Assembly: GCA_963776915.1 (NCBI GenBank)
Contig: CAVZPE010000004.1
Coordinates: 513,812-577,811 of the forward strand
DNA length: 64,000 bases
From: an uncultured Acidobacteriota bacterium
GTDB lineage: Bacteria; Acidobacteriota; Thermoanaerobaculia; UBA5066
Direction of reading: 5' to 3'
Every line of letters begins with the position of its first letter. The stretch's first letter is position 1. This document shows, piece by piece, positions 1,380 to 57,520 of the stretch. Both the position numbers and the translations under genes were made by a program. The notes under the pieces were generated by a model. The model was given only the letters and a program-made list of their open reading frames with translations, searched no databases and had not been told where the DNA came from.

Positions 1380-2024
1380 TTACCGCGCGCTCTTCGTCAC
1401 GCCGGACGCCCCCGATTCGGGCCCGCGGTAGAGGAGGCGGACCTCGCCGACGCGGATCTCGTCGCCGTCCGCGAGACGGAGGCGGCCCTCGACGCGGCGG
1501 CTGCCGAGCCACGTGCCGTTCTTGCTCTCGAGGTCCTCGATCTCGACTTTCTCGCCCGAGACGACGAGGCGCGCATGTTCGCGCGAGACGGACGCGTGAC
1601 CGACCCAGACGCTCGAAGAGCGCTCGCGGCCGAGCAGATTTTCTCCCTCGGTCAGCGGCATCTCCTGCGTTCCCCAGACGAGGACGTGGCGGCGGGAGGC
1701 CGGCACCCCGTCCGGGACCTCGTGGACCTCGCCGTCGAACGCGTAGCCGAAGCCGTGCACGGTCCGGAGAAGCGACGACTCGTCCGCCCCGTACCCGAGC
1801 ACCTTGCGGACGTCCTTGACGAGCGCGGCGAGGCTTCCCTCGTTCACGACGACGTCGGGCCAGACGCATTCGAGGATCTCGGCCTTCGAGACCGCGTCGG
1901 GCCTCTTCGAGAGGAGCAGCTCGAGGAGCCGGAACGCCTTCGGCGAGAGACGGATCCGCCGGGGACCGCGGAAGAGAGCCCGGCGGCCCGAGTCGAAGGT
2001 CACGTCGCCGAAGCGAAGCCTCAT
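1380..2024 (-). CDS. Transcriptional regulator with an N-terminal OmpR/PhoB-type winged helix and a C-terminal FHA domain
   Basis: This is an intact 214-aa ORF. RIRLSPKAFRLLELLLSKRPDAVSKAEILECVWP..TVHGFGYAF is a Trans_reg_C-like wHTH. GRERSSSVWVGHASVSREHARLVVSGEKVEIEDLESKNGTW is a typical FHA core. Confidence 0.75.
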   Translation of the reverse strand: MRLRFGDVTFDSGRRALFRGPRRIRLSPKAFRLLELLLSKRPDAVSKAEILECVWPDVVVNEGSLAALVKDVRKVLGYGADESSLLRTVHGFGYAFDGEVHEVPDGVPASRRHVLVWGTQEMPLTEGENLLGRERSSSVWVGHASVSREHARLVVSGEKVEIEDLESKNGTWLGSRRVEGRLRLADGDEIRVGEVRLLYRGPESGASGVTKSAR

Positions 2025-2145
2025 CTCGGTTTCAGAAAAGCTTCATCAGTCTACTAGGACTTCGCGCCCCCTCCGGAGCCACCTTGTCTGCGGGTTTATC
2101 GATTTCACGCGTCCACCGCCGATCCGGGCAGAAAACGGAGGTCCC

Positions 2146-3402: not shown

Positions 3403-3490
3403 CGTTCACCCCGACGGGCAGCGGCGTGTGGACTTATTACTGCCCTTCTCGATGGGAACGATGAGCGGGACGATCACCGTCATCCCGTAG
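3190..3490 (+). pseudogene. Cupredoxin (plastocyanin/azurin-like) domain remnant split over three frames
   Basis: The fragments FTPANVTCKVGVPCQITWTIQTTG, AHGVAGLGGFGV, TVTFTPTGSGVWTYYCP and MGTMSGTITVIP* (stop at 3488-3490) lie in different frames. Together they resemble the F.P..v.v..G..V.W.n.....H.v / G.Y.YYC..H..M.G.I.V pattern. Local GC is lower. Confidence 0.4.
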
Positions 3491-3577
3491 CCGATCCACT
3501 CATCGACGCTGGAGGTCCCGCGGCATCGCGCCCTCCTTCTGCTCGTTTCGCTTCGGAACAGGAAAGGAAGTGCTGAC

Positions 3578-5188: not shown

Positions 5189-5254
5189 GCCTCGGGCCTG
5201 GATCTCCCGAAAGAGCCGCCCTCGCGGGGCGCCATTCCCGTTTGACGATTCGAG

Positions 5255-5278
5255 GAGACCGCCCGGGCAGGCGGTCTC
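5255..5278 (+). terminator. Candidate hairpin terminator after the PD40 gene
   Basis: The stem is GAGACCGCC / GGCGGTCTC (9 bp) with loop CGGGCA, followed only by TT. The U-tract is weak. Confidence 0.4.
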
Positions 5279-5605
5279 TTCGCACGTCGGGCCGGGCTCG
5301 CAGGATCATCGCGACGGTCGTGCCGCGCCGACGCCGCCATGATGCACGTGAATCAGAGGCGCGCAGACCTTCCAGGCATGCTCCAAGTGAAGCCGTGTAC
5401 AAGTCATCCGTGTTCGATCCATGCGGGCCCTTTTGCGCCCGCGCGGATCAGGTCTGATCGCCTGCGTGCCAGAACGCGAGGCTTCGAGCGATCCCTGATC
5501 CGAGAGACCGACGGGCCATAGACTGCCAATGCCTATCGGCCTGACGGAAAGCGCCCTTGCGCCGCCGCTGCGAACGGCTCTTCGAGTCCTCCAGAGGAGG
5601 GTGGC

Positions 5606-8046: not shown

Positions 8047-8158
8047 CGTGCGCGAGCGGCGGATGCATTTGATTCAGTGAACAATTGGAGGGCGTTGGCA
8101 CCATGCAAAGCCCGGCACGCTACCTTCTTGGCGAGGGCCAGCTTCTGACGGCACGCCG

Positions 8159-11100: not shown

Positions 11101-12604
11101 TGGTCTTCTCCGCCGCGTTTCCTCGGGGAGCATCCGACAGAGGTGATGGACGTCTCCTTCTCGGAGGACGGCCGGCGCCTCGCGGCGGTGGAAGAGTCCG
11201 GCGAGATCCGGATCTGGGACGCGGCGTCGGCGTCGAGCGGCCCGCTGCACGTTTTTCCGGCACCCGCCGTGATGGCGCCCGCGGGGACCAGCTCGGTCCT
11301 GTACGGCACGGCCCGATGGGTCATGAGCGACACGGCGGAGCAGGGCCGTGCGCTCTTCCGCCTCTGGGATCTGACGGCGCCGTCGGGGGCGGGGCCGCTC
11401 GTCCTCCGGACGAGGCTCTACAACTCTCAGGCTTGGGCCATGGATCCGCTGGACCGCGGATGCACGGTCGTCTTCGACACGGATCTCGCTGTTCTGGAAC
11501 CTGCCGCCCTCCCGGCCCCGCGTGTTCGAGTGGCGCGAGGGCCCGATCTGGTCCGTCGCCTTCACGGCGGACGGGTCGACCCTCGTCGCCGCCGCGCAAG
11601 AGGGTCAGCTGCGCGCCTGGCCACTCTCCGCAGAGTCAGCGTCGGCGTTCCAGGTCCTTCCGAAAATGGACACGTTTGCCATGAACAGCGCCGTTCCCAT
11701 GATCGCCGCCAGTCCCACCCGAGGAGAGGTCGTCGTGGCTGCCGCACGGGGGCAGGTCCGGGTGATGCCGATCGACGGAGGCGTGCCGCGGGAGCTGGAT
11801 GGATTTCCTAAGGAGGGGGCTTTTTGGGGGGCCGTTGCGATCTCCCCCGACGGGCGCCGGGCCGGCGCGGCTCTCTTCACGGGCCCCATGAAGGGAAAGA
11901 GGATCCATGTCTGGGACCTCCAGACCGGCGCCCTGCAGGTGTTGGAGCCCGTCCCCAAAGCCGATGACTGGTTGGAGGGCGGATTCACCGGGCTCTCGTT
12001 CGTGGACAATGACCGGATTGTTGCCACCGTCATTGGCAACGGGTTGATGCTCTTCGACCTGCGCGACGGGAAAGGGAAGGTCCTCGCGCCTGCCATCAAC
12101 GCCGGCCTTGCCATGGGACGGAGCGGGCGAGTCGGGGTCGGAACAGCTTGGGACGGGAAGAGCCCTTCGCTCGAAGTTTTCCGGTTTGGCCTCGACGGGA
12201 GCGCCCCGGTCCCGCTGCCGTATCAGGCGAGAGGGTTCGCTTCGCTGGCCCTCGATCCGACCGAGACCATCATCGCGAGCGCCGGAGCCGAGGGCACCAT
12301 CCAGGTCGGGCCGATTTCGGGCGGCGAGCCGCATCTCCTCTTCGGCCACAAGGGCGGGGTCAAACAGCTCGCGTTCTCGCCGGACGGCAAGTGGCTCGCC
12401 TCGGCGGGGGACGACCAGACCGTCCGCCTCTGGCCCGTCCCCGACATGAAGGAAGTTCCACCGCACAAGCGAAGCCATGAGGAGTTTCCTCGCGACGCTT
12501 CGCACCTTCACCAACGTTCGCGCGGTGTCCGACGCCAGTTCGCCCAACGGCTGGAAGCTCGAGACCGGACGTTTCCCGGCTGGAAGACCGCCCCTCACTG
12601 GTGA
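8159..12604 (+). pseudogene. Giant Ser/Thr kinase - P-loop STAND NTPase - TM - WD40 beta-propeller protein (~1480 aa), at least 8 frame changes as assembled
   Basis: ORF pieces 8159, 9957, 10627, 10709, 10896, 11143, 11522 and 12477 join into one protein. It has a kinase domain (GAGGMGEVY..HRDIKPENL..DFGLAK), a Walker A motif (VIGPSGAGKTSF), a Walker B-like motif (LVVVDQFEELF) and a TM segment (VAFGSVLVAMSVVACVMAAL). WD40-type repeats follow (SPDGKWLASAGDDQTVRLW), ending in the tail FPGWKTAPHW. Confidence 0.75.
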
Positions 12605-12612
12605 CCTGAAAA

Positions 12613-12689
12613 TGGTGAGCCGTGTCGGACTCGAACCGACGACCCCCTGCTTAAAAGGCAGGTGCTCTAACCGACTGAGCTAACGGCCC
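12613..12689 (-). tRNA. tRNA-Lys (anticodon UUU), CCA encoded
   Basis: The reverse complement is GGGCCGTTAGCTCAGTCGGTTAGAGCACCTGCCTTTTAAGCAGGGGGTCGTCGGTTCGAGTCCGACACGGCTCACCA. It has anticodon loop CUUUUAA and a canonical D-arm and T-arm. Confidence 0.9.
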
Positions 12690-12741: not shown

Positions 12742-14085
12742 TCAGCCGCGCTGGGGAACGGGGACGTTCTTCAGCCAGGAGTCGAGGATCGTGCCGCCGC
12801 GGATGATCGTCTCCTCGCGTTTCGGGCCGGTCGACAGGATGACGACCTTCGCGCCGACGATCTCCTCGAGCGCCGTGACGTACTCGCGGGCGCGCGCGGG
12901 CAGCGCGTCCCAGCTCTCGATGCCGACCGTCGGCGTCTTCCAGCCGGGGAACGTCCGGTACACGGGCTGCGCCTTCTCGTAGTGGTCGGCGCGCGCCGGG
13001 ATCTCGCTCGCGGCGCGGCCGTCGATCGTGTACCCGGTCGCGATGCGGACCTCGTCGTGGTCGTCGAGGACGTCGAGCTTCGTGAGCGCGATGCCGTCGA
13101 GGCCCGAGACGCGGACGGAGGTCCGCGCGACGACCGCGTCGAACCAGCCGACGCGCCGGGGCCGGCCGGTGACCGTGCCGAACTCGTTTCCGCGCGTCCG
13201 GATCCGCTCGCCGACGTCGTCGTGGAGCTCCGTCGGGAACGGGCCGGAGCCGACGCGCGTCGTGTAGGCCTTCATGACGCCGACGACGGCGCCGAGCGCC
13301 GACGGCGGGATCCCGAGGCCCGTGCAGGCGCCGCCCGCCGCGCAGGACGAGGACGTCACGAACGGGTAGGTCCCGTGGTCGACGTCGAGCATGACGCCCT
13401 GCGCGCCCTCGCAGAGGAGCTTCTTGCCGGCGGCGAGCTGCGCGTTCAGCCAGGCGCTCGTGTCCGTCACGAAGCGCGCGAGCTTCTTCCCGCACTCGAC
13501 GTACGTCTCGAGCGTCTCCTCGATCGGGGCGCCCTCGACGCCGTAGAAGTGCGAGAGGACCGCGTCGTGGTGCGCGAGGACCGGGCGCGCGAGCGCGCGG
13601 AAGCGCTCGGCGTCGACGAGGTCGGCCATGCGCAGGCCGGTGCGGTTCGCCTTCGTCTCGTAGGCGGGGCCGATGCCGCGCGAGGTCGTCCCGATGTTCG
13701 CGCCGCCGAGCGCCTTCTCGCGCGCCCCGTCGAGGAGCGCGTGCGTCGGCAGGATGACGTGCGCGCGATCCGAGACCAGGAGGTTCTCCTCGATGCGGAC
13801 GCCGGCGGCGCGCAGGCTGTCGATCTCGGCGAGCATCGCGCGCGGGTCGATGACGAGTCCGTTGCCGACGACGTTCGTGACGCCCGGGCGGCAGATGCCC
13901 GAGGGGATGAGGCGGAGCGCGAAGTGGCGGTCGCCGAACCGGACGGTGTGGCCGGCGTTGTGGCCGCCCTGGTAGCGGGCGACGAGGTCGAACGACGGCG
14001 AGATGAGGTCGACGACCTTGCCCTTGCCCTCGTCTCCCCACTGCCCGCCGATGATGGCGAGGGCGGAGCCCTTGATGTGTGTCAC
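12742..14085 (-). CDS. purA: Adenylosuccinate synthetase
   Basis: This is an intact 447-aa ORF with a GTG start. It carries the motifs GGQWGDEGKGK, GHNAGH, TSRGIGPAYE and GTVTGRPRR. Confidence 0.95.
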   Translation of the reverse strand: MTHIKGSALAIIGGQWGDEGKGKVVDLISPSFDLVARYQGGHNAGHTVRFGDRHFALRLIPSGICRPGVTNVVGNGLVIDPRAMLAEIDSLRAAGVRIEENLLVSDRAHVILPTHALLDGAREKALGGANIGTTSRGIGPAYETKANRTGLRMADLVDAERFRALARPVLAHHDAVLSHFYGVEGAPIEETLETYVECGKKLARFVTDTSAWLNAQLAAGKKLLCEGAQGVMLDVDHGTYPFVTSSSCAAGGACTGLGIPPSALGAVVGVMKAYTTRVGSGPFPTELHDDVGERIRTRGNEFGTVTGRPRRVGWFDAVVARTSVRVSGLDGIALTKLDVLDDHDEVRIATGYTIDGRAASEIPARADHYEKAQPVYRTFPGWKTPTVGIESWDALPARAREYVTALEEIVGAKVVILSTGPKREETIIRGGTILDSWLKNVPVPQRG

Positions 14086-14285
14086 TTTCGAATTGTACCG
14101 GAGGAAGAGATGAATATTTCTGCTTAAGAGGGGAGAACGAGGGATGCAGTCGCGGCCGGCCGGAGCAAGGGCGCGTCGGAGCGCCGCTTCGCGGGCGAAG
14201 ACCGCTTGACAGCGGCCGGACCGCGCTCAGCTTTCCGGCCTATCGGCGGCTGCATTCGCAGCCGTCGCATCTAAGAGAAAAATCC
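14086..14285. repeat. Mosaic palindromic repeat, copy A (type-2 arms), between divergent purA and hutH
   Basis: The arms are AATATTTCTGCTTAAGAGGGG (14113) and CGCATCTAAGAGAAAAATCC (14266), in inverted orientation. The interior GC-rich hairpins include CGGCGGCTGC-ATTC-GCAGCCGTCG. About 190 nt align by eye with copy D at 37170-37360. Confidence 0.75.
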
Positions 14286-14308
14286 CCAGCTCCATTACCC
14301 GGTGCACA

Positions 14309-15841
14309 ATGCTCGCTCGTGCGATCAGACCATTCATTCTCGACGGGGACTCTCTTTCACTCGAAGATCTCTCCCGCGTCGCCTCCGGCGACGCGTCGGC
14401 GGCGCTCGCGCCGCGCGCCGCCGGGCGCGTGGACGCCGCGCGGGCCGTCATCGACCGGGCCGTCGCGGAGGACCGGGTCGTCTACGGGGTGACGACGGGC
14501 TTCGGCAGGTTCGCCGACGTCGTGATCCCCCGCGAGAAGCTCGGCGAGCTCCAGCTCAACCTCGTGCGGAGCCATGCGGCGGGGACGGGCGCCGCGCTCG
14601 GCGCGCCCGCCGTCCGCGCGGTGATGCTCCTGCGCGCGAACTGCCTCGCGAAGGGGTTCTCGGGAATCCGGCGCTCGACGCTCGAGCTCCTCCTCGCGTG
14701 CCTCGAGGCGGGCGTCCACCCGATCGTGCCGGAGCAGGGCTCCGTCGGCGCGTCGGGCGATCTGGCCCCGCTCGCGCACCTGGCGCTCGCGCTCGTCGGG
14801 GAAGGCGAGGCCGAATTCCGCGGCCGGCGCATGCCGTCCGCCGACGCGCTGCGGGAGGCGGGTCTTTCGCCCGCGGTTCTCGAGGCGAAGGAAGGCCTCG
14901 CCCTCATCAACGGGACCCAGCTCACGACGGCCCTCGGCGCCCTCGCGCTCGCGCGCCTTCTCGACCTCCTCAAGGCGGCGGACCTCGTCGGCGCCCTCAC
15001 GCTCGACGTCCTCAAGGGCACGGACGCGGCCTTCGACCCGCGCATCCACGCGGCGCGGCCGCATCCGGGCCAGATCGCGTCGGCCGCGAACCTCCGCGCG
15101 CTCCTCGCGGGGTCGCCCCTGCGCGAGAGCCACCGCCACTGCGGCGTCGTGCAGGACGCCTACACGCTGCGCTGCATGCCGCAGGTGCACGGGGCCGCGC
15201 GGGACGCGGCCGCGCACGCACGCCGCGTGATCGAGATCGAGATGAACGCCGCGACGGACAACCCGATGGTCTTCGCCGAAACGGGCGAGCTCGTCTCCGG
15301 CGGCAACTTCCACGCCGCGTCCGGTCGCCCTCGTCTGCGACCTCCTGGCGGCGGCGGTGGCCGACCTCGCGTCGATCTCCGAGCGGCGCGTCGAGCGGCT
15401 CGTGAACCCGTCGCTCTCGGGCGACCTGCCGGCGTTCCTCGTGAGGGACGGCGGCCTGAACTCGGGTCTCATGATGATTCACGTGACGGCGGCGGCGCTC
15501 GTGTCGGAGGCGAAGGCGAACGCGTTCCCGGCGTCCGTGGACTCGATCCCGACGTCCGCGGGCAAGGAGGACCACGTCTCGATGGGGCCGATCGCGGCGC
15601 GCAAGCTCGCGCGGAACGTCGACCTCTACGAGACCGTCCTCGCGATCGAGCTCCTCGCGGCCGGCCAGGCGCTGGACCTGAGGCGCCCGCTCGTCTCGTC
15701 GCCGCCCGCTCGAGGACCTGCACCGGCGTCCTGCGCGCGCGCGTGCCGTTCTGGGAACGCGACCGCGAGGCGGCGCCGGCGATCGAGGGGGCGCGGGCCG
15801 CTCTCGGCGGCCTCGGAGCGCTCCTCGCGACGCTCGGCTGA
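14309..15841 (+). pseudogene. hutH: Histidine ammonia-lyase, about 3 frame changes as assembled
   Basis: ORF 14309 is HAL-like up to GGNFHA (it carries the [17 protein letters not shown] motif). ORF 15357 continues the protein ([35 protein letters not shown]). The tail [16 protein letters not shown] returns to the first frame. The changes lie near 15319, 15706 and 15728. Confidence 0.85.
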
Positions 15842-16833: not shown

Positions 16834-17088
16834 AAGAAGAGAGGAGAGGAAGAGGAAGAGGGAGATTTGCTGAGAGGGTCCCGAGCGGAGGCGCGGCCGG
16901 AGCGCTTCGGGCGGGCGGATCGCGAGGGCTCGGGCGATTGAAGATTTTCTTCGAAGGTGGTTAGAAAGGTCGAAAAGAACGGCGATGCCGCCGCGGCGAC
17001 CGGGCCTCTGTGCTTGCCGCCCGCACCGCGCACGGGACCATTCGAAGAAGTCTTCTCTTCCTCTTCCTTCTCCTCTTCTTGCTCTTCG
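16834..17088. repeat. Mosaic palindromic repeat, copy B (composite), bridging the two ArsA-like genes
   Basis: A polypurine run (16834-16860) is mirrored by a polypyrimidine run (17055-17088). The cores are GGAGATTTGCTGAGAGGG (16862), GAAGATTTTCTTCGAAGGTG (16941) and ACCATTCGAAGAAGTCTTC (17038). Two GC-rich loops lie between them. The minus-strand frame stays open ([37 protein letters not shown]). Confidence 0.8.
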
Positions 17089-35987: not shown

Positions 35988-36168
35988 CCGAAGAGCGACG
36001 AAGGAAGAAGAAAGAAGATTCTCTTAGAAGGTGAAGAGGGGCGTGGCTGAGTCGGGCGCCCCGCGTTTCGTGTTCGGCCTGCACGGCCCCGCGCTGGATG
36101 CGGAGGAGAGGGCCTTTTTTTCGGCGCATCCGCCTCTCGGCTTCCTCCTGTTCAAGAGAAATCTTCAA
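35988..36168. repeat. Repeat copy C: polypurine arm plus forward core (35988-36042), with the partner reverse core at 36143-36168
   Basis: The left arm is CCGAAGAGCGACGAAGGAAGAAGAAAGAAGATTCTCTTAGAAGGTGAAGAGGGG and contains the nagZ GTG start. The partner TTCAAGAGAAATCTTCAATCGCCC matches copy B (reverse complement TTCGAAGAAAATCTTCAATCGCCC). Native NagZ N-terminal codons lie between the two cores. Confidence 0.65.
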
Positions 36169-37149
36169 TCGCCCTCACAAGTCGTGTCGCTGATCGAGGA
36201 GCTGCGAGGGCTCGGGGGGGCGGGAGCGGCGCCCGCCTCCGCGGGCGCCGCTCCCGCCCCGCTCCTCTTCGTGGACCAGGAGGGCGGGACCGTGGACCGC
36301 ATCGGCCCGCTCCTCGGCGTTCCGTTCGCGTCGGCCGCGGCCTGCGCGGAGGCCGGGACGGACCGCGTGCACGAGAACGCGTACCTCATGGGCCGGGCCG
36401 CGCGCCTCCTGGGATTCGACGTGGACTTCGCGCCCTGCCTCGACCTCGGGCAGCCCGGCGCGGGCGCGGTCGTCCTCGAGGGCCGGTGCTTCGGCTTCCA
36501 CGCCGAGGACGTCGTGATCGGCGGGATGGTCTTTCTCCACGGCCTCGCGCGCGCGGGCCTCGCGACCTGCGTCAAGCACTTCCCGGGTCTCGGGCGCGGC
36601 GCGGTGGACTCGCACGCGAAGCTGCCCGTCGTGGACGCGCACGACGTCGACCTCATGGTCACGGACGTCGCGCCCTTCGCGAAGCTCGGCCGCGGGGCCG
36701 ACGGGGTCATGGTCGGCCACGCGGCGTACCCCGGCTTCGAGAACGGAGCGATCGTGCCGGCGTCGCTCTCGCCGCGGATCCACGGAATCCTGCGCGGACC
36801 CGTCCGCTTCGAGGGCGTCGTCTACTCGGACGACCTCGAGATGAACGCTCTCGAGGGGACGCTGCCCGAGCGCGCCGAGCGCGCCGCGGCCGCCGGCTGC
36901 GACGTCGTGATCCTCTCGAGGACGTTCGAGGCCTACGCCGAGGCGGTCGCCCGCGTGGACGCCCTCGGCCCCGATGCCGCCCGCGCCGGGCGTCTCGACG
37001 CCCTCCGCCGCCGCGTCGCGGGCGCCCCGCGCCCGCGGTTCACCGAGGAGGCCTGGGCGAAGCTCGCGGAAGAGGCGGCAGCGTTCGGGGAGTTGATGTC
37101 GAAGCCGAGAGAGAAGAGAAGAGACGAAGACTTCGGAAGATTTTCTTAG
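36031..37149 (+). CDS. nagZ: Beta-N-acetylhexosaminidase (GH3, NagZ-like)
   Basis: This is an intact 372-aa ORF. LDAEERAFFSAHPPLGFLLFKRN, DQEGGTV and KHFPGLG are GH3 N-terminal domain motifs. The last 16 codons and the TAG stop lie in repeat D. Confidence 0.85.
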   Translation: MKRGVAESGAPRFVFGLHGPALDAEERAFFSAHPPLGFLLFKRNLQSPSQVVSLIEELRGLGGAGAAPASAGAAPAPLLFVDQEGGTVDRIGPLLGVPFASAAACAEAGTDRVHENAYLMGRAARLLGFDVDFAPCLDLGQPGAGAVVLEGRCFGFHAEDVVIGGMVFLHGLARAGLATCVKHFPGLGRGAVDSHAKLPVVDAHDVDLMVTDVAPFAKLGRGADGVMVGHAAYPGFENGAIVPASLSPRIHGILRGPVRFEGVVYSDDLEMNALEGTLPERAERAAAAGCDVVILSRTFEAYAEAVARVDALGPDAARAGRLDALRRRVAGAPRPRFTEEAWAKLAEEAAAFGELMSKPREKRRDEDFGRFS

Positions 37150-37370
37150 AAGGGAGAAGAGAGGAAAGAGGAAGATTCTTCTGCTAAGAGCGGCCGCTTC
37201 TCGCGGCCGCTCCGGAACGAATCTGTGCGCGCGCCGGGCTGTCAAGGGCGCGCTTCGCGCGCCGCGTAGCGGCCGAAGGCCCTTGACAGCGCGCCGCGCG
37301 CCCATCTTTCCTCGGCGGCGGCTGCGCATGCAGCCGCCGATAGCAGAAGAAATCTTCTCTTCTTCTCTCT
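37106..37370. repeat. Mosaic palindromic repeat, copy D (long form), between convergent nagZ and ssb
   Basis: The outer arms are GAGAGAGAAGAGAAGAGACGAAGA and TCTTCTCTTCTTCTCTCTTC. The cores are GAAGATTTTCTTAGAAGGGA (37136), GGAAGATTCTTCTGCTAAGAGC (37170) and GCAGAAGAAATCTTCT (37343). The interior hairpins are GCGGCCGC-TTCTC-GCGGCCGC, CTGTCAAGGGC...GCCCTTGACAG and CGGCGGCTGC-GCAT-GCAGCCGCCG. Confidence 0.85.
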
Positions 37371-37796
37371 TCAGAACGGGACGTCGTCGTCCGCGTCGCC
37401 GCCCTCCGGCGCCTCCGGCGCCGCAGCAGTGACGCCCGAGCTGGAGCCCGCGTCGGGCCGGCCGCCGAGCATCTTCATGTCGCGGGCCTTGATCTCCGTC
37501 GCATAGCGCTTCTGCCCGGACTCCTTGTCGTCCCAGCTGCGCGTCTGCAGCGAGCCCTCGATGTAGACGAGGCGGCCCTTCGACAGGTAGCGCTCGCAGA
37601 TGCTCGCGAGCTTGTCGAAGGCGATGACCGTGTGCCATTCGGTCTTCTCCTGCTTCTGCCCGCTGGCGCGGTCGTTCCACGTCTCGGTCGTCGCGACCCT
37701 CAGGCGCGCGATGGGGACGCCGCCGGTCGTGGCGCGCATCTCGGGGTCGGCGCCCAGGTGGCCGATCAGGATGACTTTGTTGACAGAACCAGCCAT
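37371..37796 (-). CDS. ssb: Single-stranded DNA-binding protein
   Basis: A 141-aa protein starts at the internal ATG 37796 of ORF 37371-39446. The sequence is NKVILIGHLGADPEMR..EKTEWHTVIAF with the acidic tail DADDDVPF. Confidence 0.9.
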   Translation of the reverse strand: MAGSVNKVILIGHLGADPEMRATTGGVPIARLRVATTETWNDRASGQKQEKTEWHTVIAFDKLASICERYLSKGRLVYIEGSLQTRSWDDKESGQKRYATEIKARDMKMLGGRPDAGSSSGVTAAAPEAPEGGDADDDVPF

Positions 37797-46817: not shown

Positions 46818-47614
46818 GCGCCCCGAAGATCCTGCTCGAGAAGTCGCCCTCCGACCCGCGCGTCGCGCGCCTCGTCCTCAACCGGCCCGAGACCCGCAAC
46901 GCCTGGGACGGCGAGACCGTCTCGCTGCTGCAGCGCGCGCTCCGCGACCTCGCCTCGGACGAGTCCGTGCGCGTCGTCGAGCTCTCGGGCGAGGGGCCGG
47001 CCTTCTGCGCGGGCGCCGATCTCGACTGGATGAAGCGTGTCGCGAATTTCACGATGGAGGAGAACCGGCGCGACTCGGCGGAGCTCGCGCAGCTCTTCCG
47101 GGCGCTCGACGAGCTCGACAAGCCCGTCGTCGCGCGCGTGCAGGGCGCCGCGCTCGGCGGCGGGACCGGCCTCGTCGCCGCGTGCGACGTCGTCGTCGCG
47201 GCCGAGGGCGCGGTCTTCGGGACGACGGAGGTGCGCCTCGGGATCATCCCGGCCGTGATCTCGCCCTACGTGGTCCGCAAGATCGGCGCGTCGCACGCGC
47301 GCGCGTGGTTCCTGACGGGCGAGCGGGTCGGAGCCGAGGAGGCGCGCCGCGTCGGCCTCGTCCACCACGTCGTCCCGGAGCAGGATCTCGGCAAGGCCAC
47401 GAAGGCCGTGATCGACGCGATCCTCCTGGGCGGGCCCGCGGCCGTGGTCGAGGCCAAGCGCCTCGTCCACACGGTGTCGACCCTGCCCCTGCGCGAGGCG
47501 ACCGCCTGGGCCGTCCAGCGGATGGCGGAGCGGCGCGGCTCGCACGAGGGCCTCGAAGGCCTGAAGGCCTTTCTCGAGAAGCGGCCCGCGAGCTGGACGA
47601 CGAAGGGCTCGTGA
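46814..47614 (+). CDS. liuC: Enoyl-CoA hydratase (methylglutaconyl-CoA hydratase-like)
   Basis: The GTG at 46814 overlaps the upstream stop (GTGA). The crotonase motifs are FCAGADL and GAALGGGTGLVAACD. Confidence 0.8.
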   Translation: MSAPKILLEKSPSDPRVARLVLNRPETRNAWDGETVSLLQRALRDLASDESVRVVELSGEGPAFCAGADLDWMKRVANFTMEENRRDSAELAQLFRALDELDKPVVARVQGAALGGGTGLVAACDVVVAAEGAVFGTTEVRLGIIPAVISPYVVRKIGASHARAWFLTGERVGAEEARRVGLVHHVVPEQDLGKATKAVIDAILLGGPAAVVEAKRLVHTVSTLPLREATAWAVQRMAERRGSHEGLEGLKAFLEKRPASWTTKGS

Positions 47615-49600
47615 CGCGCGGGCGGCCCTTCCGGCGCGTCCTCGTCGCGAACCGCGGCGAGATCGCAGTGCGCGTCGTCCGCGGCTGCCGCGCGGCGGGC
47701 CTCGCGTCGGTGGCCGTGTACTCCGAGGCGGACCGGAACGCGCGCCACGCCGCGCTCGCCGACGACGCCGTCGAGATCGGCCCGGCGCCGGCCCGGGAGA
47801 GCTACCTCTCGATCCCGAGGCTCCTCGCGGCGGCGAAGAGCGACGGGCTGCGACGCCGTGCATCCCGGCTACGGCTTCCTGTCGGAGAACGCGGACTTCG
47901 CGCGCGCGGTCGAGGAGGCGGGGCTCGTCTGGATCGGCCCTCCGCCCGAGGCGATGGAAGCGATGGGGAGCGAAGATCGCATCGCGAGAGAACGGATGAG
48001 AGCGGCCGGCGTCCCCGTCGTGCCCGGCGCGCTCATCGCCGGGTTCGAAGAGGACGAAGAGAGAGAGAAGATTTCTTCGAATGGTAAAGAGGGCGGGGCG
48101 CGCGGTGGCGCCGCTCGGCGCGCGGCGGGGCAGCCCGCAACCTCTGGCACCTTCAAAGAAATCTCTTCTTCTTCTTCCTCTTCCTTCAAAGAAATTCTCT
48201 CTCTGGGTCTTCCCGTCGTCGTCAAGGCTTCGGCGGGAGGCGGCGGCAAGGGGATGAGGGTCGTCCGCTCGTCTGCGGAACTCTCCGAAGCCATTTCTTC
48301 CTGCCGCCGCGAGGCGGCGGCGGCGTTCGGGGACGCGACCGTTTACGTCGAGAAGTACCTCGAGAATCCGCGCCACGTGGAGGTCCAGGTCTTCGGCGAC
48401 TGGCACGGCAACGTCGTCGCGATCGGCGAGCGCGAGTGCTCGCTCCAGAGGCGTCACCAGAAGGTCGTCGAGGAGTGCCCGTCTCCGGCCGTGACGCCGG
48501 AGCTGCGCGCGCGCCTCCTGAAGGCCGCCGTCGACGCCGCGAAGGCGGTCGGCTACGTGAACGCCGGGACGGTGGAGTTCCTCCTCGCGCCCTCGGGCGA
48601 GTTCCATTTCCTCGAGATGAACACGCGCCTGCAGGTCGAGCACCCGGTCACCGAGGAGGCTTTCGGCGTGGACCTCGTCCTCCTCCAGCTCGCCGTCGCG
48701 GCGGGGGAGAAGCTGCCGCCTCTCCCGTCCGTCCCGATCCGCCATGCGATCGAGGCGCGGGTCTACGCGGAGGATCCCGAGGCGGGGTTCCTGCCTCAGG
48801 CGGGGCGCGTCCTCCTCTATCGCGAGCCCTCGGGACCCGGCGTGCGGGTGGAGTCCGGCCTGGCCGAGGGCCAGGACGTCGGCGTCCACTACGACCCGCT
48901 GCTCGCGAAGGTCGTCGCCTCCGGCGCGACGCGCGACGAGGCCCGGCGGCGCCTCGTCGGCGCTCTCGGGGAGACGGTGATCCTCGGCGTCTCGACGAAC
49001 GTCTCGTGGCTGCGCCGGCTCCTCGAGACGCCCGAGGTCGCAGCGGGGGCGATCCACACGGGCCTCCTCGAGACTCTCCCCGTGCCCGCGCCTCCGGCGC
49101 CGCCCGACGAGGCGTTCGCGGCGGCCGCGGCGGCGCTCGTCCGGAGCGGCGCCCTCCGGTCCCGGCGGTCCCGTCCTCGCCGACCCATTCGACGGCCGGT
49201 TCCGGACCGGAGGCGGCGCGTGAGGCTCCGCGAGGCGGCGACGGGGGCGTCGCGCGAGGTCCGTCCCGGCGGGATGCCGCGCGGAGCCTTCGCCGCGCGG
49301 GACGGCGAGGTCGCGTGGGTCTTCCTCGGCGGCGAGACGTGGCGCATCTCGAAGGCGCCGGCCCGGGCCGCCCGCGCGGCGGAGGAGGAGCACGCCCTCA
49401 CCGCTCCGATGCCGGGCAGGGTCTCGGCCGTGCGCGTGTCCGACGGGCAGGCCGTGGAGAAGGGCGAGGTCCTCGTCGTGCTCGAGGCCATGAAGATGGA
49501 GCACGCCGTGAGGGCCCCGCGAGCCGGAATCGTCGCGCGACTCGCCGCCGAGCCCGGGAAGATGGTGGGGCTCGGGGACGTTCTCCTCGACGTCACATGA
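47611..49600 (+). pseudogene. mccA: Methylcrotonyl-CoA carboxylase alpha subunit (biotin carboxylase + BCCP), about 3 frame changes plus an in-frame repeat insertion
   Basis: The GTG at 47611 forms a GTGA overlap. It carries FRRVLVANRGEIAVRV (ORF 47182), HPGYGFLSEN..KASAGGGGKGMRVV..EMNTRLQVEHPVTE and the biotinyl site EAMKME (ORF 47858). The frame changes lie near 47850, 49145 and 49215. Confidence 0.85.
48044..48203. repeat. Palindromic repeat, copy E, in-frame inside mccA
   Basis: The left arm is GAAGAGGACGAAGAGAGAGAGAAGATTTCTTCGAATGGT. A GC-rich loop follows. The right arm is CACCTTCAAAGAAATCTCTTCTTCTTCTTCCTCTTCC, and CCTTCAAAGAAAT is duplicated. The translation is EEDEEREKISSNGKEGGARGGAARRAAGQPATSGTFKEISSSSSSSFKEILS. 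Confidence 0.85.
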
Positions 49601-51689: not shown

Positions 51690-51862
51690 CTTTCGGATTT
51701 CGGATTTCGGATTTCTTAGAAGGGTGAGTGGGGCTGCGGCTCGACCGCCGGCGCGGCGGTCACTCGGCCGCCTCGATCCCTCTTCACCTTCTAAGCAATC
51801 CTCGGGTCCTCGCTTTCCCTCTTCCTCCCCTCATTCGAAGAAATTCTCCTTTCCGATATCCT
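51690..51862. repeat. Repeat copy F upstream of valS, preceded by a 7-nt tandem repeat (ATTTCGG x3-4)
   Basis: The tandem tract is CTTTCGG ATTTCGG ATTTCGG ATTTCTT. The forward core is TTAGAAGGGTGAGTGGGG, followed by a hairpin loop (GACCGCC-GGCGC-GGCGGTC). The reverse core is CCCTCTTCACCTTCTAAG, followed by a polypyrimidine run and CTCATTCGAAGAAATTCTC. Confidence 0.8.
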
Positions 51863-51871
51863 CGGCAGCCT

Positions 51872-54532
51872 GTGAAGGAGCTCGAGAAGACCTTCGACCC
51901 GTCCACCTTCGAGATGCGCTGGTACAAGGCGCAGGAGGAGGCCGGTGTCTTCCGTCCCGAGTCCGCCGGCCGGGACGCCGAGCCGTTCACGATCGTGATC
52001 CCGCCGCCGAACGTCACGGGGCGGCTGCACGTCGGTCACGCGCTCGGGCGGACGCTCGAGGACGTCCTGTGCCGCTGGCGCCGCATGCAGGGGCGCGCCG
52101 TCCTCTGGGTCCCCGGCGTCGACCACGCCGGCATCGCGACGCAGATGGTCGTCGAGCGCGACCTGAGGGAACGGACGGGCCAGTCGCGCCACGACCTCGG
52201 CCGCGACGCGTTCGTCGCGCTCTGCCGCGAGTGGGCGGACGCGCGCCGCGGAGACATCCTCGACCAGATCCGGCGGCTCGGCTGCTCGTGCGACTTCACC
52301 CGCGAGTACTACACGCTCGACGCGATCCGCTCGCGCGCCGTCCGCTTCGCGTTCACGACGCTCTACGAGCAGGGCCTCGCCTATCGCGCCGAGCGGCTCG
52401 TGAACTGGTGCCCGAGCTGCGCGACCGTCCTCTCCGACCTCGAGGTGAACCACGTCGAGACGTCCGGGCACCTGTGGTCGATCGCGTACCCCGTGGTGGG
52501 CGGCGGGGAGGTCGTCGTCGCGACGACGCGGCCCGAGACGATGCTCGGCGACACCGCGGTCGCCGTGCACCCCGACGACGAGCGCTACGCCGGCGCTCGT
52601 CGGCAAGCGCGTGACGCTTCCGCTGACGGGCCGGACCATCCCGGTGATCGCCGATTCCTTCGTGGAGAGGGAGTTCGGGACGGGGATCGTCAAGGTGACG
52701 CCCGCGCACGATCCGAACGACTTCGAGGCGGGCAGGCGCCACGGGCTCGACCTCGTGACCGTCATCGGGTTCGACGGCCGGATGACGCCGGCCGCCGGCG
52801 CCGCGTACGCGGGCCTCGAACGCGCCGAGGCGCGCAAGAAGGTCCTGCGGGACCTCGAGGCGCAGGGCCTGCGCCGGGGCGAGAAGAGCCACCTCGTGCC
52901 GCTCGCGCGCTGCCAGAGGTGCGACACGATCGTCGAGCCGCTCGTCTCGATCCAGTGGTTCGTGAAGATCGGCCCTCTCGCCGCCAAGGCGGTCGAGGCG
53001 ACGGAGAGGCGGGAGACGACCTTCACGCCCGAGCTCTGGAAGAAGACCTACGACGAGTGGATGCGGAACATCCGCGACTGGTGCATCTCGCGCCAGCTCT
53101 GGTGGGGACACGAGATCCCGGCCTGGTACTGCCCGGACGGCCACGTGAACGTCCCGAAGCCGGGCGCGGACGACCCCACGGCGTGCGCGACGTGCGGCTC
53201 GGCCGCCCTCGTGCGCGACCCGGACGTGTTCGACACGTGGTTCTCGTCGTGGCTCATGCCGCTCTCCGTGTTCGGCTGGCCCGCGAAGACGGCGGACTTC
53301 GAGCGCTTCTATCCGACGAGCGTTCTCGTGACGGGCTTCGACATCCTCTTCTTCTGGGTGGCCCGGATGATCATGGCCGGCACCTGGTTCGACGGGCGGG
53401 CGCCCTTCCGGGACGTGGTCCTGCACGGCCTCGTGCGCGACGAGAAGGGCCAGAAGATGTCGAAGACGAAGGGCAACGTCGTCGACCCGCTCGAGATGTG
53501 CGACGAGTTCGGGGCGGACGCCGTGCGGTTCACGCTCGCCGTCCTGTCCGGCACGGGCCGCGACCTCCCGTTCGGCAAGTCGCGCGTCGCGGGTTACCGC
53601 GGCTTCGCGACGAAGGTCTGGAACGCCGCGCGCTTCGCGCTGCCCCTGATCTCGGAAGGAGCGTGCGTGGACGCGCTCGAGTTCCGTTCCCTCTCCACGG
53701 TCGACCGCTGGATCCTCGCGCGGTTCTCGGACGCCGCGAGCCGCGTGGGCGCGTCCCTCGAGGCCTGCCGCTTCGACGAGGCGGCGCACGCGCTCTACCA
53801 GTTCTTCTGGTCCGAGTTCTGCGACGGCTACGTCGAGATGATCAAGCCGGTCCTCCGCGGCGCCGACGTGCCGGAGGCCGAGAAGGCGCGGACGCGCGGC
53901 GTCCTCAAGCGGGTGCTCCTCGACTCGCTCGCGCTCCTGCATCCGTTCATGCCGTTCGTGTCCTGCGAGATCCGCGAGGCGCTGAACGGGGACGGCCTCG
54001 GCCTCGCGACGGCGAAGTTCCCCGAGCCGGACCCCGACTGGAAGGACGACGCGGCGGTGAGGTGGTCGAGACTCCTGCGGGCGATCGTGACGCGAGTCCG
54101 GAACCTGCGCGCCGAGCACGGCCTCGCGCAGACCGAGGCGCTCGCGGTCGGCCTCGAGCTCCCGCAGGACCCCTTTCAGAGGGAAATGCGGCGTCACGTC
54201 CCGCTCCTGAGCCATCTCGCGCGGCTCAGCGCCGTGGAGATTTCTTCGAGGTGGAATTGGCCCGGAGCGCATCGCGACGTCGTCGCGGAGATCGGGATCG
54301 TCGTCGAATTGCCTTCGAAGAGAGATTTCTTCCGAAGACAGGGAGAAGCTGCGAGCGCGACGTGGAGCGCCTGCGCGCCGAGGCGGCGAAGATCAGAGCG
54401 CGGCTGGCCGACCAGAGCTTCCTCGCGCGCGCTCCCGCACCCGTTGTCGCGAAGACGAAGCAGCAGCTCGAAGAAATCTCCGAACGGATCGCGCGGCTCT
54501 CCGGCAACCTCGTGGGGACTCCGGACCGGTGA
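51872..54532 (+). pseudogene. valS: Valyl-tRNA synthetase, two or more frame changes (about 52590 and about 54340)
   Basis: The GTG at 51872 gives MKELEKTFDPSTFEMRWY. The sequence carries PPPNVTGRLHVGHAL (HIGH motif), TRPETMLGDTAVAVHPDD, then ORF 52611 (GTGIVKVTPAHDPNDF..KMSKTKGN, the KMSKS motif). The coiled-coil tail returns to the first frame. Confidence 0.9.
54237..54340. repeat. Inverted core pair G inside the valS C-terminal region (a further core lies at 54466-54480)
   Basis: GAGATTTCTTCGAGGTGGAATTGG lies at 54237. GAATTGCCTTCGAAGAGAGATTTCTTCCGAAGA lies at 54305. They flank native-looking codons (PGAHRDVVAEIGIVV). The second valS frame change lies at the right core. Confidence 0.6.
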
Positions 54533-55353
54533 GCGGCGGCGGCGCTCCCGTCCCGCCCGCGGCGTCCCCTCTCGGGTCGCTCGCTCCCCTCGGCGGGAGG
54601 CGCTTCGTGCGTCTCCACAATCTCATCTTCGTCCGGACGACGCCGTCCACGAACGATCTCGGGAAGATCATCGTCGAGCGCATGCTCGCCGAGAGCGAGG
54701 AGATCCGCCTCACGGTGATCGTCGCGGGCGAGCAGACCGCCGGGCGCGGGCGCGCGGGCCGGCCGTGGACGTTCGTGCCCGGCGCGCTCGCCCTCTCCGC
54801 CATCGTGCCCTGGCCGGAAGGCCCCGGGCGCGTCCGGCTCCCGATCGAGACCGGCATCCTCCTGGCGCGCGGCCTCGCGGCCGCGTTCGGGATCGAGGTC
54901 AGGGTGAAGTGGCCGAACGACCTCCTCGTCGGGCGGAAGAAGATCGGCGGCCTCCTCGTCGAGGCGCGGTCGAACGACGAGGGCGAGGGCTGGGCCGTGG
55001 TCGGCTTCGGACTGAACGTCCGCGGAACGCGAGCCGACCTCGACGCGCGCGGCCTGACGGACGCGACGTCGCTCGAGGCGTGCGGCGTCGCGCCCACGCT
55101 GCTCGAGGGCGAGGAGCCGCTCGACGCCGTGCTCACGATCCTCGACGAGGGGATCGGCGAGCCCTGCACCGACCCGCTCCCCGAGGCGTTCGCGGCCGTC
55201 TCGGCCCACGCGCCCGGCGACAGCCTCACGGTGGACGACGGCACCCGGACCCGCAAAGGGGCGTTCGCGGGCGTCTCGCCCGAGGGCTTCCTGCGCCTCG
55301 CGACCGAGAGCGGCGACGAGACGCTCGTGTCGGGGGACGTCGTCCTCTTCTGA
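54529..55353 (+). CDS. birA: Biotin--[acetyl-CoA-carboxylase] ligase (no HTH domain)
   Basis: This is an intact 274-aa ORF whose GTG start overlaps the valS stop. It carries the motifs GEQTAGRGRAGRPW and KWPNDLLVGRKKIGGLLVE. Confidence 0.85.
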   Translation: MSGGGAPVPPAASPLGSLAPLGGRRFVRLHNLIFVRTTPSTNDLGKIIVERMLAESEEIRLTVIVAGEQTAGRGRAGRPWTFVPGALALSAIVPWPEGPGRVRLPIETGILLARGLAAAFGIEVRVKWPNDLLVGRKKIGGLLVEARSNDEGEGWAVVGFGLNVRGTRADLDARGLTDATSLEACGVAPTLLEGEEPLDAVLTILDEGIGEPCTDPLPEAFAAVSAHAPGDSLTVDDGTRTRKGAFAGVSPEGFLRLATESGDETLVSGDVVLF

Positions 55354-55354
55354 C

Positions 55355-56155
55355 ATGGAGGCCCCGGAGCTCGACGAGTCCACGTACGCGACGAGAGTCG
55401 AGGACGCCTTCATCGCCGAGCGCGGCACGCCCTTCCTCCTCTCGCCGAAGGACTGGACGCTCATCCGCGGCTGGCGCGAGGGCGGGATCCCGGTGGACAC
55501 CGTGGTCCGGGCCGTGCGGGAGGCGTTCGAGAAGCGGCGCGCGCGCGGCCAGGCCGGCAAGATCTCGTCCATCGCGTACTGCGCGAACGCCGTCGAGGAG
55601 CTCTGGGAGATGGAGCGCCGGGGCCTCGTGGGCAAGGCCCACGAGGCCCCCCCGGCGGGCGCGAACGCGCCCGCGAGAGGAGAGAAGTCTCTTGCTTTGC
55701 TCTCGGATCGTCTGCGCGCGATGAGCGACGCTCTCGCGACCATGGACGGCGCTGAAGATCTTCTTAGAAGGGTGAGTGGGGCCGGGGCGGCGGGCAGCGC
55801 CGGTGCGGCTCCTCGAGCGGAGGGCGCCCCAAACACCTTCGAAGAAATCCCCCTCTTCTCGTCCCTCCGAAAGTCGCTGAGCTCCGCCGCCTCGAAGATC
55901 GAGGCGCTGCCGCGCGATCTTTCATTCGAAGAATCCGAAGAGAAGCTCTCCGTGATCGAGGCGTCGCTCGTGAAGTCGGCCCTCCGCGTCCTGCCGTCCG
56001 AGCAGCAGGCTCTCGTCGAATCCCGCGTGTCCTCCGCCCTCGGCGACGTCGCCGGCGTGTCGCCCGCGGTCGTCGAGCGGATGCGCCGGGCGCTCACGCG
56101 CCGCGAGGTGCGCCTGCTCCTCGGCCTGCCGGCCCTCACGCTCCTCCATGGCTGA
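55355..56155 (+). CDS. Hypothetical protein with a conserved N-terminal domain; the C-terminal half carries repeat H
   Basis: This is an intact 266-aa ORF. The N-terminus AFIAERGTPFLLSPKDWTLIRGWREGGIPVDTVVRAV looks like a conserved uncharacterised family that I cannot name. Confidence 0.55.
   Translation: MEAPELDESTYATRVEDAFIAERGTPFLLSPKDWTLIRGWREGGIPVDTVVRAVREAFEKRRARGQAGKISSIAYCANAVEELWEMERRGLVGKAHEAPPAGANAPARGEKSLALLSDRLRAMSDALATMDGAEDLLRRVSGAGAAGSAGAAPRAEGAPNTFEEIPLFSSLRKSLSSAASKIEALPRDLSFEESEEKLSVIEASLVKSALRVLPSEQQALVESRVSSALGDVAGVSPAVVERMRRALTRREVRLLLGLPALTLLHG
55754..55860. repeat. Palindromic repeat, copy H, in-frame inside the 55355 gene (an extra core lies at 55919-55940)
   Basis: The forward core is GAAGATCTTCTTAGAAGGGTGAGTGGGG, and its last 22 nt are identical to copy F. 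A GC loop follows. The reverse core is CACCTTCGAAGAAATCCCCCTCTTCTC. The translation is EDLLRRVSGAGAAGSAGAAPRAEGAPNTFEEIPLFS. Confidence 0.8.
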
Positions 56156-57520
56156 GGTCCGCCCGGGCGACGCCCTCGAGGCTCTCGTCGAGCGCGTCGT
56201 GCCCGGGGGCGAGGGGCTCGCGCGAACGGAGGGCGTCGTGACGCTCGTGGCGGGCGGCCTGCCGGGGGACCGCGTCCGGCTGCGGGTGGAGGACGCGTCT
56301 CCCCGCCTCATCCGGGGTCGCGCGGAGGAGATTCTCGAGGCGGGCGAGGCGCGCCGCCCGGACGCCGACGTCTGCGGCCTCGCGCGGAGCGGCGCCTGCG
56401 GCGGCTGCGACTGGCCCGCTGCGCGGCCGGAGCACCATCGCGCGCTCAAGACCGAGCTCGTCCTCGACGCGCTGCGGCGGCTCGGCGGCCTCACCGCGGC
56501 CGACCTGCCCGAGCCGCGCTGGCTGGGTTCCCCGCCGAACTACCGCCTCCGCAACCGGCTGCACCTCGACCGCGAGGGGCGCCTCGGCTTCTTCGCGCCC
56601 CGCTCGAAGGCGGTCGCGGACCTCGAGGGCTGCCAGATCGTGTCGAAGCCCTTCCTGGAGCGGCTCCCGGCGCTCCGGGACCACCTTCGCTCGATGGGGC
56701 CGATGGAAGGGGAGCTCTTGACCCTGGAGTCGCGCGACGGGAAGACCCTGCTCGGCGAGTTGCGGCTCTCGGCGGGTGACGGTCTGCAAATTTCTTCGAA
56801 GGTGAAAGAGAGAGGGAGAGGGCCGTTCGACGGGTTTCGCGTCGTCGATGCGGGTGGGCGGCTGCTCGCCTCGGACGGTCCCTCGTCGCTTTCCATCGAG
56901 GCAGGCGGCGCCTCGTTCGACGTGCCGGTGTCTTCCTTCTTTCAAGGAAATCTCTTTCTCCTCGATTCGTTCCTCGAGGAGATCCGGACGGCGCTTCGCG
57001 CCGGAAGAGAAGAGAAGATTTTCCTAGAAGGGAAGAGGGGGGAGGCGCGCGCTTGCGCGCCGTGGATCTCTATGCGGGCGTCGGGTTCATGACGCGCCCT
57101 CTCCTGGAGCTCGCGGCCGAGATGGGAGGCGGCGAGGTGACGGCCGTCGAGATCGACCCGGCGTCGTCCCATTCACTTTCAAAGAATCTTCAGGCCTGGC
57201 AGAAGGAGGGCCTGCCCCTCGCGCGCTCGATCCGAGCCTCCGCTGAATCCTTCTTCCACTCGAAGAAATCCGAATCTTCGGTCTCTCTTCTCCTCGCGGA
57301 CCCTCCGCGCGCCGGCCTGTCGCCCGAGGTGCGGAAGGGGCTCCTGCGGCTCGCGCCGCCGCGCGTCCTGATGGTGTCCTGCGACCCGCCGACGCTCGCC
57401 CGCGACCTCGCGGCGCTGAAGGAGCGCTACGCGGTGACGCGCCTGACGCTCCTCGACCTCTTCCCGCAGACCCACCACGTCGAGACGGTGGCCTTGCTCG
57501 CCGCGCGTCCGATCGGATAG
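56148..57520 (+). pseudogene. 23S rRNA (uracil-5-)-methyltransferase RlmD/RumA-like (TRAM, Fe-S Cys cluster, SAM MTase), one frame change near 57040
   Basis: ORF 56148 carries CGLARSGACGGCDW and SSFFQGN. ORF 57053 carries VDLYAGVGFM, LLADPPRAGL, MVSCDPPTLARDL and DLFPQTHHVETV. The join falls in repeat I-3 at a G6 run. Confidence 0.8.
56788..57293. repeat. Cluster I: five core copies inside the rlmD-like gene
   Basis: The five cores are AAATTTCTTCGAAGGTGAAAGAGAGAGGGAGAGGG (56788), CTTCTTTCAAGGAAATCTC (56936), GAAGAGAAGAGAAGATTTTCCTAGAAGGGAAGAGGGGGG plus the GGCGCGC-GCTT-GCGCGCC hairpin (57004-57060), CTTTCAAAGAATCTTCAG (57175) and CCACTCGAAGAAATCCGAATCTTCGGTCTCTCTTCTCC (57256). Confidence 0.7.

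Follow-up and report, generated by a model that had tools for sequence, protein, structure and literature searches.

Two intergenic copies of a palindromic repeat, designated A and D, were analysed in a 64,000-nucleotide stretch (the window; coordinates are counted from its first letter) of contig CAVZPE010000004.1 from an uncultured Acidobacteriota bacterium of the class Thermoanaerobaculia. Both belong to a new palindromic, mosaic family of repeats that is probably mobile. Copies A and D are probably two insertions of one non-coding, non-autonomous repeat of Thermoanaerobaculia, similar to the repetitive extragenic palindromic (REP) sequences, the bacterial interspersed mosaic elements (BIMEs) and the REP doublets forming hairpins (REPINs), and also to the MITEs (miniature inverted-repeat transposable elements). 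The full unit is of about 185–200 bp and contains, from the outside inwards, a terminal inverted repeat (TIR) of 13–14 bp, two inverted GC-rich REP-like hairpins, a central long palindrome and a 47-nt tip. As a discrete unit with several copies, it is located at unrelated loci, and close relatives differ in whether they carry it at a given site. Copy D is structurally intact and copy A is a decaying copy.

Homology and structure of copies A and D

As the original prediction had stated, copy D is placed between the convergent genes nagZ and ssb, and copy A between the divergent genes purA and hutH. A resemblance of about 190 nt at about 70% identity had been proposed for them by eye, and formal comparison agreed with it. 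The MAFFT pairwise alignment of D and A gave a mean column identity of 73%. In a sensitive blastn search of D against the whole window (G+C content 72%), A was the top non-self match (139 nt, 72.7% identity, E 9e-13), and the following matches started only at E ~1e-3, within the GC-rich background; a formal alignment without significant similarity, the outcome named beforehand as contrary to the claim, was therefore not obtained. With D as the sole query, nhmmer matched A at 14109–14293, over D positions 20–215 (E 5e-7). A full-length profile of eight copies matched D at 37159–37378 (E 3e-54) and A at 14098–14302 (E 2e-39), scores that are circular because both copies are members of the profile, and no other part of the window was matched at E ≤ 10. 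The left module of a further copy, B (~16855–16945), had been assigned to the same module type; this kinship was rejected, since its alignment score was 14 versus 10.6 ± 1.9 in shuffles, 77 of 1000 shuffles scored at least equally, and the profile did not match it.

The stretch 37106–37370 had been attributed to D. The element is indeed present there, but its repeat unit comprises only 37174–37354, and 37106–37173 is outside the unit. The features of both copies are the following:

37106–37173, + strand: AG-rich host spacer outside the repeat unit, with the nagZ tail and its stop codon TAG at 37147–37149
37174–37354, + strand: copy D, intact repeat unit, TIR to TIR (alignment with relatives, profile and fold)
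37174–37186, + strand: left TIR, GATTCTTCTGCTA, pairing with 37341–37354 in the fold
37190–37210, + strand: left subterminal hairpin, GCGGCCGC-TTCTC-GCGGCCGC (read from the sequence)
37211–37240, + strand: left arm of the central palindrome, complementary to 37288–37315 (inverted repeat I6, fold)
37241–37287, + strand: 47-nt apex, GTCAAGG/GCGCGC-TTC-GCGCGC/CGC-GTA-GCG/GCC-GAA-GGC/CCTTGAC (sequence of D)
37288–37315, + strand: right arm of the central palindrome (inverted repeat I6, fold)
37316–37339, + strand: right subterminal hairpin, CGGCGGCTGC-GCAT-GCAGCCGCCG, REP-like unit (sequence)
37340–37354, + strand: right TIR, ATAGCAGAAGAAATC (alignment, fold)
37355–37372, + strand: CT-rich tail or host spacer, abutting the ssb stop codon (complement of 37371–37373)
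14112–14286, + strand: copy A, eroded, without the left hairpin (nhmmer profile match at 14098–14302)
14164–14210, + strand: degenerate apex of A, AGCAAGG...ACCGCTTGAC (sequence comparison)
14244–14267, + strand: right hairpin of A, CGGCGGCTGC-ATTC-GCAGCCGTCG (sequence)

The right hairpin of D had been quoted in the original prediction and was located at the position listed above, with its counterpart in A. Taken as a whole, copy D is a long, imperfect palindrome (self-blastn; inverted repeat I6), and as a single strand its predicted fold has −80.5 kcal/mol (z −9.7). Its ends are GATT(T)CTTCTGCTA at 37174–37186 and TAGCAGAAGAAATC at 37341–37354, and the family consensus of the TIRs is GATTTCTGCTAT / ATAGCAGAAATC. 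The left subterminal hairpin is kept in loci L003, L072, L014b and L002, and is missing in A and in its ortholog in L079. The CT-rich flank after the element has comparable flanks in L003 and L014b. The fold of A is weak (−45.4 kcal/mol, z −2.3). A copy orthologous to A, 91.5% identical and better preserved, is present in L079, a syntenic contig 86.9% identical over 4.1 kb, and A is thus an older insertion, now in decay.

The apex has the general form GTCAAGG / GCGCGC-NNN-GCGCGC / CGC-NNN-GCG / GYC-NNN-GRC / CCTTGAC, that is, a closing stem and three mini-hairpins, which on paper would form a four-way junction with zero unpaired junction bases. Among 20 Thermoanaerobaculia-type copies, 97.9% of the apex cells were paired, most of the unpaired ones belonging to A, and the only variable positions were those of the three triloops and of a single compensatory pair, which was U-A in 15 copies and C-G in 4. 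The same apex tops differently armed palindromes in Terriglobia/Bryobacterales and in Alphaproteobacteria. The arms are lineage- or subfamily-specific, yet self-complementary in every lineage; on a crude ungapped alignment, 14 of their 26 pairs were altered on both sides (121 cells versus 55 ± 5 in shuffles). RNAalifold, applied to a crude alignment of 28 sequences, gave nothing beyond the invariant stem, and the pairing of the arms was therefore specified by hand. The pattern used for the cross-phylum search fixes CAAGGGCGCG and CTTGACAGCG, so that those 20 bases are invariant by construction; the mini-hairpin architecture between the fixed strings and the long complementary arms outside them were not forced by it. 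Conservation seems to concern the central junction and the geometry of the hairpins rather than the sequence of the arms.

Distribution, mosaic forms and insertion sites

To the exact pattern CAAGGGCGCG-N25-33-CTTGACAGCG, 59 loci responded in a scan of 185,579 species genomes; about 30 of them showed the same architecture and the remainder were chance or coding matches. The carriers are Thermoanaerobaculia and unclassified Acidobacteriota metagenome-assembled genomes (MAGs), Terriglobia, Bryobacterales and Solibacter, and, outside the Acidobacteriota, Hyphomicrobiales, Xanthobacteraceae and Rhodospirillaceae. Full-length units of the D type were found at unrelated loci of other species (L003, 89% over 205 nt; L072, 90% over 195 nt; L014b, 79% over 201 nt). 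Metagenome contigs, scanned with the end-plus-hairpin string TTCTGCTATCGGCGGCTGC, gave solo hairpin units of about 48 nt (contigs L067, L077, L078 and L085), hairpin units in tandem (L069) and full composites (L072, L075, L079 and L083).

The organisation is mosaic and BIME-like. A palindromic unit of the REP kind, TTCTGCTAT-CGGCGGCTGC-N4-GCAGCCGCCG-CATA.., occurs solo, in tandem and inside composites, and two such hairpin units, inverted, surround a central palindrome in D, L003, L072, L014b, L002, L024, L075 and L083. The window holds two composites in its 64 kb. The apex is flipped relative to the CGGCGGCTGC hairpin in L066, and likewise in L013, L014a and L056; inversion of the tip is most simply explained by recombination between the inverted arms. 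Within subfamilies the arms are shared across loci (for example, 91% identity between L075 and L083), as copying from a master element would give.

Two observations concern particular carriers. Four Thermoanaerobaculia-type copies are on contigs L004, L009, L024 and L056 of JBLMYG01, labelled 'Acidithiobacillales bacterium MAG235'. L024 is syntenic with the Thermoanaerobaculia contigs L002 and L044, and L056 with L013; the bin is probably mislabelled or contaminated. In two Acidobacteriota MAGs (L021, ~1340–1600; L037, ~4230–4520) the apex palindrome is nested between arrays in which a 24-nt repeat, GTAGAAATGTCCTATTCCAGCAAA, is in direct orientation at one flank and inverted at the opposite one, and L037 carries a further apex copy about 270 nt off (4092–4135).

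Presence and absence were compared between close relatives. The forest-soil contig L001 shares 97.7% identity with the window across 1368 nt, with an identical SSB protein, and is without a clean 170-nt block precisely at D, keeping the AG- and CT-rich flanking spacer; D is therefore either recent or was lost lately in L001. The purA–hutH spacer is of 30–55 nt in L061 and L063 (PurA identity 83%) versus 223 nt in the window. Comparisons of filled and empty sites placed the insertion in the middle of a palindrome, in a short A/T-containing motif, GAAGAATTCTTC-like or TTCTTAGAA-like, within AG/CT-rich spacers. Between L003 (2038–2258) and L072 (8534–8732) the flanking gene and the insertion site are orthologous and the whole repeat is inverted, with 88–92% identity in the repeat and 63–74% in the flanks: either the unit was flipped between its inverted ends, or there was a double insertion at the same hotspot. 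The inverted orientation fits repeated insertion into one hotspot.

An all-against-all BLASTP comparison of the open reading frames (ORFs) within 3 kb of 30 copies revealed no recurrent neighbouring protein, and only orthologous contexts recurred. According to a crude codon-usage gene finder, whose counts are rough and whose 'inside ORF' calls are probably spurious, the elements are placed between tandem, convergent and divergent genes, at 0–20 nt from the flanking ORFs. The proposal that A and D are a mobile or structural element rather than a gene-specific regulator is in agreement with all these data, as the unit is found at non-syntenic sites with 77–90% identity, in other Thermoanaerobaculia genomes and in metagenomes, no protein family recurs beside it, and D is missing from L001 and A from the orthologous spacer of L061 and L063.

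Affiliation, mobility and alternative explanations

The REP, BIME and REPIN elements of Proteobacteria are mobilised by RAYT, an HUH/Y1 transposase. The family described here shares with them a short GC-rich imperfect palindrome that is solo, in tandem, or in an inverted doublet folding into one long hairpin, as well as mosaics, tight extragenic packing, compensatory changes in the stems, persistence at orthologous sites and the absence of coding capacity. It differs from them in the defining tag, GTAG or CGTC, as its stem is followed by ATAG, ATAT, CATAT or CCTAG (GGTAG only in L024), and in the spacer between the units, which is not a loose linker but a long palindrome whose conserved 47-nt tip, predicted to form a junction, is also found in other phyla with unrelated arms. 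We know of no counterpart, among REP or MITE families, of such a cross-phylum junction-forming centre with unrelated arms.

Like the MITEs (the Correia elements of Neisseria, ERIC/IRU, Nezha), which are of 100–300 bp, non-coding, TIR-bounded and multi-copy, the family shows insertion polymorphism between strains and copies at unrelated loci; it would likewise form hairpins if transcribed and occupies both promoter-side and terminator-side sites. In contrast with MITEs, no unambiguous target-site duplication could be called, no related insertion sequence with matching ends was found among the 85 loci, and it is conserved at the centre, its arms covarying between subfamilies. In shape only, it is analogous to the T-shaped terminal hairpins of adeno-associated virus (flip/flop), in which a long stem is topped by small palindromes, with a multi-way junction and the tip both ways round; the A/D family, however, is composed of chromosomal interspersed repeats and not of replicon ends.

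Within the phylum, a group of TIR-associated Y1 transposases (TIRYT) proper to Acidobacteria has been reported (Di Nocera et al. 2013, PMC3733652), which serves as a lead only. The TIR repeats flanking TIRYT genes form moderately abundant families of inverted repeats that are self-complementary in part and that Y1 enzymes are presumed to mobilise, and the A/D family is likened to them by description and not by sequence.

According to our preferred explanation, that of a non-autonomous mobile repeat, the element would have spread, now or formerly, as a folded single strand or cruciform, and a trans-acting structure-specific enzyme would recognise it, for which a RAYT- or TIRYT-like HUH/Y1 transposase may be a candidate. 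Any effects on nagZ/ssb and purA/hutH, such as hairpins in untranslated regions or divergent promoters set further apart, would be by-products.

Several results weigh against this explanation. No transposase or autonomous partner was found in the 8–12 kb considered around each match: a tblastn search of ~630 kb with an approximate E. coli RAYT query, a weak test, gave no match, and at none of 85 loci did two element ends bracket a gene. No clear target-site duplication could be called, because target and element ends are both palindromic and a duplication is inseparable from the inverted repeat. The centre is conserved rather than the ends, unlike classical MITEs, and neither GTAG nor CGTC, the tags of REP sequences, occurs as such. 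Finally, at seven orthologous pairs the element was conserved at least as well as its mostly coding flanks (L003/L072, 88% versus 63–67%; L014/L055, 95% versus 86–89%; another pair, 91.5% versus 88–91%). A purely neutral sequence would diverge faster than its flanks, so neutral junk is doubtful; the conservation suggests structural constraint, gene conversion among copies or repeated insertion at a hotspot. REPIN-type elements are reported to show comparable behaviour.

A tentative extension, which we regard as rather unlikely, is that the 47-nt apex is the functional core of an undescribed cross-phylum class of structure-specific DNA elements, its folded tip mimicking a Holliday-type four-way junction. 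A recombinase or nuclease specific for junctions or hairpins would then act on this tip and so move, flip or maintain the element. If true, this would account for a conserved centre with arms that merely pair, for the occurrence of tip and unit in both orientations, and for orthologous copies that surpass the neighbouring genes in conservation.

To a similarly low degree, the repeat may be a structural element maintained by the host and useful wherever it is located, for example as a bidirectional transcription block, an mRNA 3'-end stabiliser between closely packed genes, or a site for nucleoid or junction proteins, as proposed for REP/BIME. The identity at the seven orthologous pairs would fit such a role, as would the covariation that keeps the arms paired, the invariant apex stems with free loops, the 0–20 nt distance to the (crudely called) flanking ORFs, and the fact that D fills the entire gap of a convergent pair with no other terminator-like site. 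However, A erodes in place (z −2.3, apex stem mutated), the 97.7%-identical L001 is without D, no U-tract terminator signature was found at D or A, and the contexts (tandem, convergent, divergent) are inconsistent. This explanation overlaps with that of a mobile repeat, as a mobile repeat can become domesticated.

That the family is a multi-copy gene for a structured non-coding RNA, folded as a long hairpin and topped by a conserved junction, is improbable. The strong predicted fold of D, the covarying arms and the conservation of the apex across Acidobacteriota and Alphaproteobacteria are favourable to it, but a search of the window and 19 related loci against Rfam, with gathering and permissive thresholds, yielded no relevant family (at gathering level, only tRNAs and one unrelated 6S RNA; at permissive level, generic hairpin-type miRNA models). 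Neither strand is favoured, since the arm mismatches of 27 copies are strand-symmetric (G:T 52 versus A:C 59), and either orientation is seen for the apex and indeed for the complete unit. In addition, 3-bp stems closed by triloops would be only marginally stable as RNA, neither a consensus sigma-70 promoter nor an intrinsic terminator was detected around D or A on either strand, and the element is present or absent among near-identical genomes. Taking together the Rfam result, the symmetric mismatches, both orientations, the lack of promoter or terminator and the lack of a recurring neighbour, we favour a palindrome acting at DNA level, as a folded single strand or cruciform, over an RNA of one strand or a gene-specific regulator.

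Even less credible is a promoter or priming signal on single-stranded DNA (Frpo- or sso-like), in which the duplex of the apex stem would offer TTGACA as a −35 box when folded. A perfect TTGACA (37283–37288 in D, directly ahead of the right arm) does lie in the always-paired stem, and many Acidobacteriota copies show, by eye, weak −10-like hexamers (CAGATT, GACAAT, TACAAT) 15–17 nt on. Nevertheless, TTGACA belongs to the search pattern and its conservation is partly by construction; D and A gave no match in the consensus promoter scan on either strand, no consensus −10 element follows the TTGACA of D, and the −10-like hexamer is missing in the alphaproteobacterial copies. The location is not that of conjugative or rolling-circle elements either, the contexts being chromosomal housekeeping genes: blastn of D and one alphaproteobacterial copy against 72,556 plasmids gave no match, and the only match of the apex pattern in viral contigs was a chance one in coding sequence, without hairpin structure.

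A chance likeness of GC-rich, low-complexity intergenic DNA, suggested by a genome of 72% G+C and its many weak GC-rich self-comparison matches, is refuted, as the E value of 9e-13 between A and D stands far from the ~1e-3 background, the profile matches are confined to A and D (profile members themselves) and copies of 89–90% identity exist in other genomes.

Flanking genes, other repeats of the window and significance

The genes flanking both copies are the following:

36043–37149 (start alternatively 36031), + strand: nagZ-like gene of glycoside hydrolase family 3, flanking D (Pfam Glyco_hydro_3, E 1e-38)
37371–37796, − strand: ssb, flanking D (translation; the identical L001 protein carries PF00436)
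12742–14085, − strand: purA, flanking A (homologs named adenylosuccinate synthase, PF00709)
14309–15841, + strand: hutH-like gene, flanking A (Pfam Lyase_aromatic, only profile positions 1–325 of 466), apparently frameshifted past ~residue 337

The homologs of PurA confirm the assignment of the window to Thermoanaerobaculia. Neither PurA nor NagZ of the window had an exact protein match on record. The C-terminal 15–17 residues of NagZ (K/R/E-rich, ..DF.RFS*) and the stop codon are encoded in AG-rich repeat-like spacer, both in the window (37106–37149) and in L001 (1400–1459). This spacer holds a half-site of a separate short-repeat family, TTCTTAGAAGG at 37143–37153, and the nagZ TAG stop falls within this motif; L001, the relative with the empty site, has an equivalent nagZ tail and motif.

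The short family is palindromic, of ~90 nt, with ends GATTTCTTAGAAGG(T/G)GA ... TCACCTTC(G/T)AAGAAATC. Its sites are 48067–48163 (with a second right end at 48183–48196), 55755–55850, 51710–51800 and 16940–17055, with half-sites at 36015–36045 and 37136–37160. At one mismatch at most, TTCTTAGAAGG occurs 12 times in the window versus 0.16 expected. One copy is in-frame in biotin carboxylase, where it adds ~40 extra residues between the Biotin_carb_N and ATP-grasp domains, and a further one is in-frame in the ORF 55355–56155. These two copies inside ORFs resemble the Rickettsia palindromic elements (RPEs) and intragenic REPs; A and D, in contrast, are intergenic, and only GATTTCT at the ends is common with the short family.

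Four genes are split over frames, their Pfam domains resuming in another frame: hutH (14309–15841), valS (51728–55724), biotin carboxylase (47182–49600) and a rumA-like methyltransferase (56148–57520). Indel errors in a long-read assembly, rather than pseudogenes, are the suggested cause, and caution is advisable with details at the level of single bases, for example the lengths of homopolymers within the repeats.

An 11.4-kb block (1228–12612), between tRNA-Glu (774–850) and tRNA-Lys (12613–12689), carries genes for an FHA/winged-helix regulator, for PKD and PD40 proteins, a WD40 protein and two Ser/Thr kinases, one of them fused to an nSTAND1 NTPase domain. It is missing from the otherwise syntenic, 87%-identical L079, and is thus a variable island.

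A full-text literature search with strings of the core sequence returned only primers and unrelated matches. Neither Thermoanaerobaculia nor most of the Acidobacteriota of soils have been cultured, and hardly anything has been charted of the repeats that they carry. The family is defined by its consensus ends, its hairpin units and a 47-nt core that can be searched for; it provides a marker for strain-level variation and a starting point in the search for the enzyme mobilising elements of this kind, and it is a cause of breaks and mis-joins when MAGs are assembled. It also means that the sequence shared beside nagZ, ssb, purA and hutH is not the signal of a regulon. The unusual pattern, in which the centre is conserved, the arms covary, flipping occurs and the element surpasses its flanking genes in conservation, may inform on the persistence of REP-like 'replicators', and could point to a new structure-specific DNA transaction.

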